DNA of 64,000 nt from Nanobdellota archaeon (GTDB lineage: Archaea > Nanobdellota > Nanobdellia > Pacearchaeales > GW2011-AR1). The stretch is taken from the NCBI GenBank assembly GCA_038046005.1, contig JBBSXB010000001.1, positions 52,769 through 116,768 on the forward strand. The letters are read 5' to 3'. Position 1 is the first letter of the stretch, and every line of letters begins with the position of its first letter. The position numbers and the translations under genes were made by a program. This document shows positions 9,899 to 24,887 of this stretch, piece by piece. The notes beneath the pieces were generated by a model. It had not been told where the DNA came from and ran no database searches. It worked only from the letters and a program-made list of their open reading frames with translations.

Positions 9899-9997
9899 CG
9901 CCCCCGCCAGGAATCGAACCTGGAAGCCCAGAGGGCCTGGTTCTCTTGTCTAAATCTCAAACTCAAGACCAGTGCTCTACCATTGAGCGACGGAGGC
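9899..9997 (-). tRNA. tRNA-Ser (anticodon TGA) with 19-nt intron after position 37
   Basis: Sense strand reads GCCTCCG-TC-GCTC-AATGGTA-GAGC-A-CTGGT-CTTGAG[TTTGAGATTTAGACAAGAG]A-ACCAG, a long variable arm GCCCTCTGGGCTT, CCAGG-TTCGATT-CCTGG, CGGGGGC-G. Class II structure and G73 discriminator are consistent with Ser. Confidence 0.7.
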
Positions 9998-17103: not shown

Positions 17104-17487
17104 ATGAAAAATAAAGTAGAAAATAAAATCAAACGAATTGTATCAAGAAGAGACATAGCAACTTTAACAGAAGGAGGTATTGTTTCAGTAAAATTAAAAC
17201 ACTTTTATCCAAGTGTTAGCATTTATACAACAACAGAAGAAGGATTATTTATGGTTGCGGGGAATTACATGACAACTACAAAATTAATAGCCCCTTTAAG
17301 AAATAGTTTGTTCAATCCAGAAGGGAGAATAATGGAACTCGTCGGTTTTACTAGAAATATGGAGTTTGAAAATGGGGCTTTGATTTTATATGATAAGGCT
17401 ATAGGAAAAAAATGTTTGCTCCCAGAGAGTGGAACTCCTTACAATTATTATAAAGACAGATTATCAGTAGAGGGATTAATAAATTAA
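17104..17487 (+). CDS. Hypothetical protein (127 aa) inserted between L2 and S19
   Basis: Starts 8 nt after the L2 stop. S19 starts 2 nt after its stop. No recognisable family. Not a known ribosomal protein at this conserved junction. Confidence 0.5.
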   Translation: MKNKVENKIKRIVSRRDIATLTEGGIVSVKLKHFYPSVSIYTTTEEGLFMVAGNYMTTTKLIAPLRNSLFNPEGRIMELVGFTRNMEFENGALILYDKAIGKKCLLPESGTPYNYYKDRLSVEGLIN

Positions 17488-19388: not shown

Positions 19389-19685
19389 ATGGAAATATGT
19401 CCAAAGTGTGGATTACCCAAAGAAGCCTGTGTATGTGAACAGATAGCAAAAATTTCACAAAAGATAACTGTAACGACAGACAAGAAAACATACGGAAAGA
19501 TAGTAACTGTCGTCACAGGGTTCGGCGATGGAGTGGATGTGAAAAAAACCGCAAAAGCTCTAAAAAACGAACTGGCTTGTGGAGGCACCTACAAAGATCG
19601 TATGATCGAGCTTCAAGGAGATCATACCAAAAGAATAAAAGGTGTCTTGGTCAAGTTGGGTTTTGATGAAGAATCCATAAATTAG
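19389..19685 (+). CDS. sui1: Translation initiation factor 1 (aSUI1/eIF1) with N-terminal zinc ribbon
   Basis: 98 aa. CPKCG...CVC followed by the SUI1 domain (KITVTTDKKTYGKIVTVVTGF...LACGGT). Confidence 0.85.
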   Translation: MEICPKCGLPKEACVCEQIAKISQKITVTTDKKTYGKIVTVVTGFGDGVDVKKTAKALKNELACGGTYKDRMIELQGDHTKRIKGVLVKLGFDEESIN

Positions 19686-19698
19686 AAATACGCGAAAA

Positions 19699-20091
19699 AT
19701 GACAAAGAAGGAAACCAAAGTAAAAGAAGAAGGAATGCTAAAAATAGCTGGTGCTTTATGCAGTGATAGGAACTGCCATGTCCATGGCGGATTAAAGACA
19801 AGAGGAAGAATCTTTGATGGATTGGTCATAAAAAAATTCCCGAAAAGAGTCGCAATAGAATTTGACAGGATGACATATGTAAAAAAATATGAAAGGTATA
19901 AAAAATCAAACACAAAGATTCATGCCAGGCTTCCTGACTGCATGAGTGACAAAATCAATGTTGGAGACTACATTAGGGTGCAGGAATGCAGACCTTTAAG
20001 TAAGATAATACACTTCGCGGTTTTAAACAAAATCAAAAATAAAGAAGAAGCAACAAAGATTTTGAACAAACAGGAGACTAACTTAAAATGA
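19699..20091 (+). CDS. rps17: Ribosomal protein S17 (uS17)
   Basis: 130 aa. CSDRNCHVHGGLKTRGRIF...VGDYIRVQECRPLSK. Confidence 0.85.
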   Translation: MTKKETKVKEEGMLKIAGALCSDRNCHVHGGLKTRGRIFDGLVIKKFPKRVAIEFDRMTYVKKYERYKKSNTKIHARLPDCMSDKINVGDYIRVQECRPLSKIIHFAVLNKIKNKEEATKILNKQETNLK

Positions 20092-20432
20092 AAAGAGCAA
20101 TTATTTTAACAGGAAGAGAAGGAAACTCTGAGTTTTACAGTTTATTATTAGAACTAAATTCTAATGCTGTTTTTTACACTCATCGGTTTAAAGAAGGAAA
20201 TCATCAAGCTTTTTTAGACGAAGTTGCTTCAGATTTTGCAGAAAAAATTGCTGAATATAATAAATCTGGAATTTTAGAAGTAGGAAGATTAAATGGTTAT
20301 AATATAATAGATGGAAAACCTATTGAGGTAGATAAAATAGACACAACTTCGTTTGAAAGAAGATTAGAAAAATTGTTAAAAAATTTAAAGGGAGTAACTG
20401 CAGTAGAAAATATTGCAAGTTTAAACAACTAA
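20088..20432 (+). CDS. Hypothetical protein (114 aa) inserted between S17 and L14
   Basis: ATGA overlap with the S17 stop. L14 starts 2 nt after. AGGAG 14 nt upstream. No recognisable family. Confidence 0.5.
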   Translation: MKRAIILTGREGNSEFYSLLLELNSNAVFYTHRFKEGNHQAFLDEVASDFAEKIAEYNKSGILEVGRLNGYNIIDGKPIEVDKIDTTSFERRLEKLLKNLKGVTAVENIASLNN

Positions 20433-20433
20433 A

Positions 20434-20835
20434 ATGAAAGCAATAAGTGCACGAGGAACAGAAGGAATGAATTTAGGAGCCTATGCCGTGGCTGCTGATA
20501 ATAGCGGTGCTAAAATTGTAAAAATCGTCGGTGTTAAAGGAAGCAAGGCAAAAAAAGGAAAACAAACAGCTGCAAAAATAGCAGATTGGGTTAAGGTCAG
20601 CGTAAGAAAAGGTTTGCCAGATATGAGGGGAAAAGTATTTGATGCTGTTGTTGTAAGACAAAAAAAACCATATAGAAGGCTTAGCGGGGAAAGAATTGCT
20701 TTCGAAGATAATGCAGTCGCTATACTAAAAGATGAAAAAGGAAATCCAAAAGGGACACAAATTAAAGGTCCAGTAGCAAGGGAGGTTATGGAGAGATGGC
20801 AGCAAGTTGCTAAAATCGCTTCACTAGTCTATTAA
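20434..20835 (+). CDS. rpl14: Ribosomal protein L14 (uL14)
   Basis: 133 aa. Canonical uL14 sequence. Confidence 0.9.
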   Translation: MKAISARGTEGMNLGAYAVAADNSGAKIVKIVGVKGSKAKKGKQTAAKIADWVKVSVRKGLPDMRGKVFDAVVVRQKKPYRRLSGERIAFEDNAVAILKDEKGNPKGTQIKGPVAREVMERWQQVAKIASLVY

Positions 20836-24413: not shown

Positions 24414-24887
24414 ATGGAAAAAGAAAAAGCACTAAAAGATTTTGAAGAAGGGTTCGGCAGATTAAAGCAAGAACTTAAGTTTAAAACTAATTTGGATGAA
24501 ATTGATGAAATTTTCTTTATTAGAGATGTTATACTTCAAGATGGATTTGTAAGCAAAAATTTATTCAGGCAAATGGCCTACAGGATTGCAGAATTTTATC
24601 TAAGATGGAATGATTATTTGCATGGTTTAATAATGCCAAACCCTCAAAATATTTTAAGTTTAAGCGAAAGTAAGATTTTTAACCAAGAAGAGAAAAAGAT
24701 TATAACAAACATGATAAAAAAGATAATGGAATTGAACAGCAAGAATATTCTTATAACTTTGACTAGGGATAAAGCAGAAGAAGGGAAGTTTATTGATTAC
24801 AGTGTTAATATGTGGAAAAGTGAATTACAACCAGAGATAATAAAATTAATTAAAAAAATAAATAAAGAATGGGGAGAAAACAAATGA
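24414..24887 (+). CDS. Hypothetical protein (157 aa) inserted between L19e and L18
   Basis: Starts 1 nt after the L19e stop (AGGAG 7 nt upstream). Its stop overlaps the L18 ATG (ATGA). No recognisable family. Confidence 0.5.
   Translation: MEKEKALKDFEEGFGRLKQELKFKTNLDEIDEIFFIRDVILQDGFVSKNLFRQMAYRIAEFYLRWNDYLHGLIMPNPQNILSLSESKIFNQEEKKIITNMIKKIMELNSKNILITLTRDKAEEGKFIDYSVNMWKSELQPEIIKLIKKINKEWGENK

Follow-up and report, generated by a model that had tools for sequence, protein, structure and literature searches.

What is a protein of no recognised family doing inside a ribosomal protein operon? Few gene arrangements of prokaryotes are as well conserved as the S10-spc cluster, which is used routinely as a phylogenetic and binning marker. 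A cluster of this type lies on the + strand of a contig of a Nanobdellota archaeon (JBBSXB010000001.1, positions 52,769 to 116,768; this whole stretch of 64,000 nucleotides (nt) is called the window below), in the order L3-L4-L23-L2-[ORF127]-S19-L22-S3-L29-SUI1-S17-[ORF114]-L14-L24-S4e-L5-S14-S8-L6-L32e-L19e-[ORF157]-L18-S5-L30-L15-SecY, where the brackets mark three open reading frames (ORFs) without a family. We concentrate on ORF114, which encodes 114 amino acids (aa) and separates the genes for uS17 and uL14 (S17 and L14 below). These two genes are adjacent in the canonical archaeal cluster, whose only extra genes are RNP1, S4e, L32e and L19e, all of them specific to Archaea and Eukarya (PMC10833476). 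A first-pass annotation had singled out ORF114 as an unrecognisable gene embedded in a conserved operon, and rightly so, as it is flanked by S17 and L14 and has no match to any curated family. The reading that we favour, with moderate confidence in it as a whole, is that ORF114 is a fast-evolving accessory "hitchhiker" cassette, translationally coupled to its neighbours, which occupies a recurrently used slot of the S10-spc cluster and encodes a probably non-catalytic protein with a predicted RNase H-like fold.

Judged by its sequence, ORF114 is a genuine protein-coding gene (for coordinates see Table 1). The reading frame and the ATGA in which its start codon overlaps the S17 stop codon are as originally described; only the distance to L14 has to be corrected, from two nucleotides to one (the A at 20433). 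By chance, 114 successive codons without a stop would occur with a probability of about 5e-4 at the local composition, and only 1.65 ORFs of at least this length are expected over the six frames of a shuffled 64-kb sequence. The exact protein is present in NCBI as "hypothetical protein AABW51_00570 [Nanoarchaeota archaeon]", and identical DNA with the same gene order recurs on contigs of six or more separate sequencing runs. Profile matches cover S17 and L14 completely, so that ORF114 is a fragment of neither; a frameshifted piece of a neighbouring gene, the artefact feared in the first-pass annotation, is ruled out by the full-length flanks together with the identity of the DNA in independent assemblies. 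We saw no integrase, attC-like repeat or terminator at ORF114, found no repeats or RNA structures at the S17/ORF114/L14 junction, and obtained no Rfam match that would indicate a cis-regulatory RNA within the operon. A promoter of its own was not seen either, where the absence of an archaeal promoter was not directly tested. The sequence TAAAATGAAA, which flanks ORF114 on both sides, was considered as a target-site duplication and rejected, as it is a general junction motif of the operon.

An exhaustive phmmer search of 1.84 billion cluster representatives revealed homologues of ORF114 in 20 clusters at 50% identity (109-121 aa, 31-43% identity, E 5e-8 to 4e-4); a word-indexed homology search returned only the self-match. 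All homologues with a database name are entered as unnamed or hypothetical proteins, from Pacearchaeota or metagenomes, and so far the family is confined to DPANN archaea of the Pacearchaeota/Woesearchaeota type. Members do occur in some relatives of the archaeon studied here, which disposes of the other early reservation, that the ORF might be missing from all of them. The family alignment shows a conserved hydrophobic core, conserved positions in the N-terminal half (G9, [RK]10, E11, E15, Y17, L19, Y30, F42 and F50-A51) and in the C-terminal half (G66, N69-G70, P108 and a C-terminal Asn), and basic residues kept at positions 72, 80 and 83. ORF114 itself has no match in Pfam or NCBIfam at E <= 1 and none in PADLOC or PHROGs, and tblastn turned up nothing in phage or plasmid sequences. 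Twenty-four family members gave no consistent Pfam family, and none of them matches RuvC, RNase_H, RuvX or OrfB_IS605; the family profile found only noise among PDB sequences (E > 0.3), and scans of some collections with the family alignment returned nothing. The ratio of nonsynonymous to synonymous substitution rates (dN/dS) ranges from 0.3 to 0.9 in family pairs that are too divergent, and whose third positions are too AT-biased, for these values to be informative.

The distribution of the family indicates that ORF114 is not part of the core operon. We compared two sets of loci with both flanks present, namely 79 species-level relatives retrieved through L14 (75-87% identical L14) and, independently, 74 metagenome loci. 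A family member sits between S17 and L14 in 2/79 genomes and 3/74 metagenome loci (~3-4%). Direct overlap of S17 and L14 is the arrangement in most relatives; some ORF fills the slot in about 24% of them, and the occupants fall into at least 15 unrelated families. That these other occupants could be decayed homologues of ORF114 was rejected, since a three-frame hmmsearch of every gap was negative. On a neighbour-joining (NJ) tree of six flanking ribosomal proteins the carriers are scattered, and their nearest neighbours have either the direct overlap or a different ORF (e.g. the window compared with L012, L098 with L072, and L037 with L050 and L035, where L numbers denote the individual loci).

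Rate and composition point in the same direction. The sister genomes L087 and L089 share 79-95% identity in their ribosomal proteins and 53% in their ORF114-family members. The isoelectric point (pI) of ORF114 is 5.7 and the family median is 7.8 (range 4.7-9.6), to be compared with 9.4-11.2 for 22 ribosomal proteins of the window. The G+C content at third codon positions (GC3) of ORF114, 0.12, is the lowest in the operon; 114-codon segments taken from long genes of the window have a mean of 0.27 (standard deviation 0.05), none of the 561 being as low, and GC3 of the homologues lies below the mean of their flanks in 11 cases out of 11. Thus the family is not near-universal in the lineage and ORF114 is not strongly basic, although both would be expected of a ribosomal protein. 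It has instead the marks of an accessory cassette, being co-directional with the operon, coupled at both ends, patchy in its occurrence and replaceable by unrelated genes. As far as these comparisons go, ORF114 is accessory rather than core and no fixed gene of its lineage, and it is probably not a stoichiometric ribosomal protein.

ORF114 is one case of a more general phenomenon. We defined an insert as a gap of at least 150 nt between adjacent ribosomal genes and examined 1263 junctions in 86 loci. Such gaps were found at 121 junctions (~10%), the longest ORF being co-directional in 117 of the 121 gaps with a median fill of 99%; at least one insert is present in 53/86 loci, and one locus has nine. 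The independent metagenome set gave 65 inserts at 612 junctions. The slots used most in the genome set are S17-L14 (20/79) and L14-L24 (20/80), followed by S8-L6 (15/70), S14-S8 (11/71) and L2-S19 (9/64); in the metagenome set S17-L14 is filled in 18/74 loci and L14-L24 in 19/78. Junction intercalation is therefore a common trait of the Pacearchaeota/Woesearchaeota-type clade, with variable slot content, and the claim of the first-pass annotation that the inserts reflect a lineage trait and not chance holds for intercalation as such but not for the ORF114 family, which is rare in both sets. We found no published description of such peppering of a ribosomal operon.

The inserts are extremely diverse. 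The three of the window together with 99 from its relatives (102 in total) form 92 BLASTP clusters, of which 85 are singletons. A Pfam domain was detected in only 3/99 inserts of the relatives: a Nudix hydrolase in the S17-L14 slot of L085 (3627-4004, Pfam 4.4e-22), an HD domain in the same locus (859-1446, Pfam 1.8e-07), which by sequence is the 195-aa ORF of the S19-L22 slot, and a TrmB-type helix-turn-helix (HTH) domain. These examples imply that annotatable enzymes and regulators are also able to fill the slots. Some inserts recur at different junctions: one group is shared by L011 (L2-S19), L015 (S17-L14), L075 (S14-S8) and L086 (S17-L14), and the S17-L14 insert of L007 matches the L24-S4e insert of L049. 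In L007 nine ribosomal protein junctions in succession contain an insert, the inserts at L14-L24 and S4e-L5 being paralogues; six ORFs of no recognised family lie within the operon of L099, and L037, L035 and L066 are also heavily peppered. By eye, many of the singletons have in common "..L..L..GD(I/V)I" near the N terminus and either "Y...L..AG(I)" or "F.RL..LL.EA" near the C terminus (e.g. L007 at S17-L14, L049 at L24-S4e, L011 at L2-S19, L012 at S14-S8, L045 at L2-S19, L031 at L23-L2, and 17104-17487 of the window). They may constitute one fast-evolving superfamily spread over several slots, of which iterative searches with hidden Markov models (HMMs) linked only some members.

A different kind of occupant of the S17-L14 junction is a conserved spacer of about 50 nt, observed in L008, L010, L022, L030, L032, L058, L063 and L071; L062 has it twice in tandem. 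An ATGA-coupled mini-ORF of 17-19 codons (e.g. MKANQIFPIMQNLYGGNLA, MKANQRFSCIKIYGGKFK) stands at its beginning and a GGAGG Shine-Dalgarno motif for L14 at its end; RNAalifold revealed no conserved RNA structure in the spacer. L010 has this spacer, and its close sister L011 has the direct S17/L14 overlap.

Where do the members of the ORF114 family reside? We inspected the genomic context of 17 distinct members and found 13 of them in the S17-L14 slot (the window, L023, L037, L087, L088, L089, L095, L097, L098, L100, L107, L110 and L123; L095 is counted here because its member directly precedes L14, at the end of a contig). One member, in L099, occupies the S3-L29 slot, and in that locus the S17-L14 slot is filled by an unrelated 98-aa ORF. 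The remaining three lie outside ribosomal operons. The first of these (P0024, in L091 with L092) directly precedes the gene for a 697-aa HerA/FtsK-like P-loop ATPase (L091 381-2474; DUF87 8e-7, PADLOC mad8 6e-12, a weak terminase-like Walker A), which is followed by small membrane proteins, so that the neighbourhood in L091 looks like that of a mobile element. The second is downstream of a TrmB-family regulator, and the third has toxin-antitoxin genes (VapBC and PemK) in its neighbourhood.

How would such an insert be expressed without harm to the genes behind it? We propose that ORF114 has no promoter and would be translated from the operon mRNA. Ribosomes that terminate S17 at the UGA would reinitiate at the overlapping AUG, aided by the AGGAG in the 3' end of S17, and those that terminate ORF114 at the UAA would reinitiate one base further on, at the AUG of L14; expression of the essential downstream genes would thus remain undisturbed by the insert. 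In the relatives the same ATGA links S17 either directly to L14 or to another insert, and GGAG is present in the last S17 codons of most of them, directly preceding L14 where there is no insert. The AGGAG noted upstream of ORF114 in the first-pass annotation is therefore real, but it appears to be the usual Shine-Dalgarno element of the S17 3' end, which would normally serve L14. The junction sequence at the end of ORF114 contains no separate Shine-Dalgarno motif for L14, and the in-slot members of the family share the ending AAY-TAA-A-ATG; such an ending without a new Shine-Dalgarno element suggests that L14 depends on coupling. If only co-directional, terminator-free and tightly coupled inserts survive ahead of essential genes, the uniform architecture of the inserts would follow. 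The cassettes at S17-L14 would come, go and be exchanged for others, and the most plausible route is homologous recombination between the conserved flanking genes S17 and L14; random deletion could hardly re-create the exact ATGA of non-carriers.

Although ORF114 shows no sequence relationship to a known family, its fold could be predicted. The AlphaFold2 model based on the 24-sequence alignment has a predicted local distance difference test (pLDDT) score of 85.2 and a predicted template-modelling (pTM) score of 0.78; the model from the single sequence was poor (pLDDT 45.7) and was not used. The order of elements is beta-beta-beta-alpha-beta-(beta-hairpin)-alpha-beta, and the predicted architecture is that of the RNase H-like superfamily, a three-layer alpha/beta/alpha sandwich around a five-stranded mixed sheet with the topology beta1-beta2-beta3-alpha-beta4-alpha-beta5. 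Structure comparison of the model matched the RuvC domain of Cas12f (score 9.7), the central domain of aRF1 (9.4), Cas12k (9.0), Pelota (8.8), Balon (8.5), RuvX (8.4), RuvC (8.1), a terminase nuclease (8.1) and uS11m (7.7), and Foldseek searches against the PDB and against viral models were consistent with an RNase H-like fold. No single family is prominent among these matches, hence "RNase H-like fold" is the safe statement for the predicted structure of the product.

The putative active site differs from that of the RNase H-like nucleases. Position E11, at the end of strand 1, is acidic in 22/24 sequences; position 69, at the end of strand 4, is N in 19/24 and D in 3/24; E64 is present in 17/24; and no acidic residue is conserved in the terminal helix across the 24-member alignment. 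Polar residues are retained at the classical active-site positions of the predicted fold, namely E11, N69 and the C-terminal Asn. The family thus lacks the DEDD/DEDH carboxylates of RuvC, RNase HI and RuvX, with an Asn at strand 4 and no carboxylate in the terminal helix. It also lacks sequence or profile similarity to the nucleases of this fold (RuvC, RuvX/YqgF, RNase HI, the RuvC domain of Cas12f/TnpB, the terminase nuclease), and ORF114 is much smaller than most of them, with an extra beta-hairpin after strand 4. Because the canonical carboxylates are not conserved, the modelled protein is more likely a module that binds nucleic acid or protein, or a pseudo-nuclease, than an active enzyme of the RNase H/RuvC type. 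The aRF1 motif GGQ is absent from ORF114, which consists of a single domain without a match to Pfam eRF1_2. Nor does it resemble Rpp29 (RNP1): the model is not an Sm-like beta-barrel, there is no Pfam match, and the site is downstream of S17, whereas Rpp29 normally lies between L29/SUI1 and S17. Motifs of homing endonucleases (LAGLIDADG, GIY-YIG, HNH, PD-(D/E)xK) likewise gave no Pfam match in ORF114, and their folds differ from the predicted one.

Several observations tell against the hitchhiker cassette, or leave room beside it. Internal branches of the NJ tree are short, and a Mantel test of family against host divergence gave rho 0.16 (p 0.24), a result in which horizontal transfer and saturation are not separable. 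A link to mobile elements is not borne out by the databases, as ORF114, P0024 and the HerA-like ATPase have no match in phages, plasmids or IMG/VR. The concentration of 13 of the 14 in-operon members in one slot could point to a functional connection with S17, L14 or the ribosome, and RNase H-like folds are found also in proteins that bind the ribosome (uS11, uL18 and the central domains of aRF1/Pelota). Template-modelling scores (TM-scores) of the model to single-domain RNase H proteins are modest (0.4-0.55), the conserved E11, E15 and N69 make a non-canonical catalysis possible, and translation and coupling of ORF114 are themselves deduced from the sequence. Some of these points would suit a lineage-specific ribosomal or ribosome-associated protein, e.g. 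an assembly or hibernation factor, stoichiometric with S17 and L14 and binding rRNA through its RNase H-like fold in the manner of uS11, uL18 or aRF1/Pelota/Balon. The exact placement of most members between S17 and L14, coupled at both ends, and a fold common to aRF1, Pelota and uS11 speak for it, and there is a precedent in the spc operon of Methanococcus, where ORFs of no assigned function were later identified as S4e, L32e and L19e. We nevertheless consider a ribosome factor unlikely, because close relatives rarely have the gene and sister lineages have an empty junction or unrelated ORFs, because the protein is near-neutral to acidic, evolves far faster than its flanks and differs in codon usage from the adjoining ribosomal protein genes, and because family members occur outside ribosomal operons as well; compared with aRF1/eRF1, Pelota, Balon, uS11 and uL18, ORF114 carries no GGQ, family motif or Pfam ribosomal protein signature, is not basic and is not universal.

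The patchy spread, the fast evolution, the use of one precise slot between highly conserved genes and the single member at another junction (S3-L29) would also be expected of a selfish element, a small RuvC/RNase H-like nuclease of the homing type that cuts empty S17-L14 junctions and is copied in by repair. Such a role is very unlikely for ORF114: of the catalytic carboxylates only E11 is at a canonical site and the set is not conserved, 114 aa are too few to include a DNA-recognition domain, neither a known homing-endonuclease motif or Pfam match nor a target-site duplication was found, and helical, membrane and Nudix proteins are held in the same slot, which indicates that filling it needs no nuclease. 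Least credible is a decaying or non-functional remnant, or a ribosomal gene fragment that arose through a frameshift or faulty assembly. A GC3 below that of every other gene of the operon and the lack of annotation anywhere would fit it, but S17 and L14 are complete, the same DNA was recovered in at least six independent sequencing runs, a stop-free frame of this length is improbable by chance, and there are at least 20 homologous clusters of the same length with a conserved core and a confident fold prediction. We therefore retain the accessory, translationally coupled cassette as the preferred explanation. A bolder version of it can be put forward only tentatively: the operon may act as a capture-and-display platform for promoterless cassettes of fast turnover that move by recombination of their flanks, and ORF114 may be a degenerate RNase H-like module serving in conflict or symbiosis (targeting a virus, a host or a ribosome) instead of housekeeping. 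The basis for this is that about 10% of junctions are filled, that more than 90% of the inserts are ORFans, and that some families are found in several slots or outside the operon.

The other inserts of the window are listed with the flanks of ORF114 in Table 1. The first-pass annotation had counted ORF114 as the third of four intercalations; three family-less ORFs are indeed present (17104-17487, 20088-20432 and 24414-24887), but the probable fourth (19389-19685) is the SUI1/aIF1 gene, which was found at the same position in nearly all relatives and belongs to the canonical archaeal cluster, so that it does not count as a new insert. In a profile-profile comparison, suggested at the time as a check of whether the inserted proteins are related to each other, and in BLASTP, ORF114, ORF127 and ORF157 proved mutually unrelated (hhalign probability < 1%, BLASTP E > 0.2). 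Nor did iterated local HMM searches of the 102 inserts connect ORF127 or ORF157 to any other, and GC3 of these two ORFs is normal (0.22 and 0.27). The slot of ORF157 is empty in all 39 relatives in which both of its flanks could be seen.

Table 1. Position of ORF114, its junctions and flanking genes, and the other inserted or embedded genes of the cluster
Feature	Position in window	Strand	Description
ORF127	17104..17487	+	L2-S19 slot; without Pfam, NCBIfam or PADLOC match
SUI1/aIF1 gene	19389..19685	+	Pfam SUI1 7.7e-20; NF002096 1.6e-35
uS17 gene	19699..20091	+	Full length, upstream flank; Pfam Ribosomal_S17 8.1e-16; TIGR03630 uS17_arch 3.5e-28
AGGAG Shine-Dalgarno-like motif	20072..20076	+	Within 3' end of S17 gene; 11 nt before ORF114 ATG
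ATGA overlap	20088..20091	+	ORF114 ATG (20088-20090) over uS17 TGA (20089-20091); putative termination-reinitiation site
ORF114	20088..20432	+	114 aa, soluble, ~13 kDa, pI 5.7; uncharacterised family, predicted RNase H-like fold
TAA-A-ATG junction	20430..20436	+	ORF114 TAA (20430-20432), A (20433), uL14 ATG from 20434
uL14 gene	20434..20835	+	Full length, downstream flank; Pfam Ribosomal_L14 2e-33; PRK08571 1e-48, positions 1-131/132
ORF157	24414..24887	+	L19e-L18 slot; 3' end overlaps annotated L18 start by 19 nt; without Pfam, NCBIfam or PADLOC match

Three further features of the window were noted in passing. Only 13 nt (19686-19698) separate SUI1 from S17, with no Rpp29 (RNP1) gene at the place where the canonical archaeal cluster has it, and the same holds for nearly all relatives. 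The protein encoded by the L22 gene (17884-18459) is extended at its N terminus by about 55 residues rich in Lys and Glu, the Pfam L22 domain being matched from residue 60. On the - strand, Rfam identifies a 99-nt tRNA (9899-9997, 48.7 bits) that is absent from the ARAGORN output and probably contains an intron.

Small diverse genes that sit at fixed sites, depend on an outside promoter and are distributed patchily are familiar from phage "morons", free-standing homing endonuclease genes and integron cassettes. ORF114 may be likened to them as a small patchy gene between conserved genes, with the difference that morons and integron cassettes do not lie, as ORF114 does, in a cellular ribosomal protein operon. 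With SUI1, Rpp29/RNP1, S4e, L32e, L19e and the adk/secY genes at the end of the cluster it shares co-directional and tight packing in a conserved cluster; those canonical embedded genes are fixed across Archaea, whereas the inserts, ORF114 included, occur patchily, are hypervariable and differ between sister lineages. ORF114 represents a new small family of a known, here predicted, fold, and the organisation in which it is found, a ribosomal operon with hypervariable slots, is unusual and apparently not yet described. With its degenerate active site, this new family of small, predicted RNase H-like proteins invites structural and biochemical work. Length variation and foreign genes in ribosomal clusters can disturb marker-gene pipelines applied to such lineages. 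The ribosomal operon junctions of DPANN archaea offer a defined address at which accessory "dark matter" proteins can be easily harvested and compared, and they raise the question of how cassettes can come into an essential operon, and be lost from it again, without polar effects. As members of the operon, the inserts would be co-expressed with the ribosome in these ultra-small symbiotic archaea.

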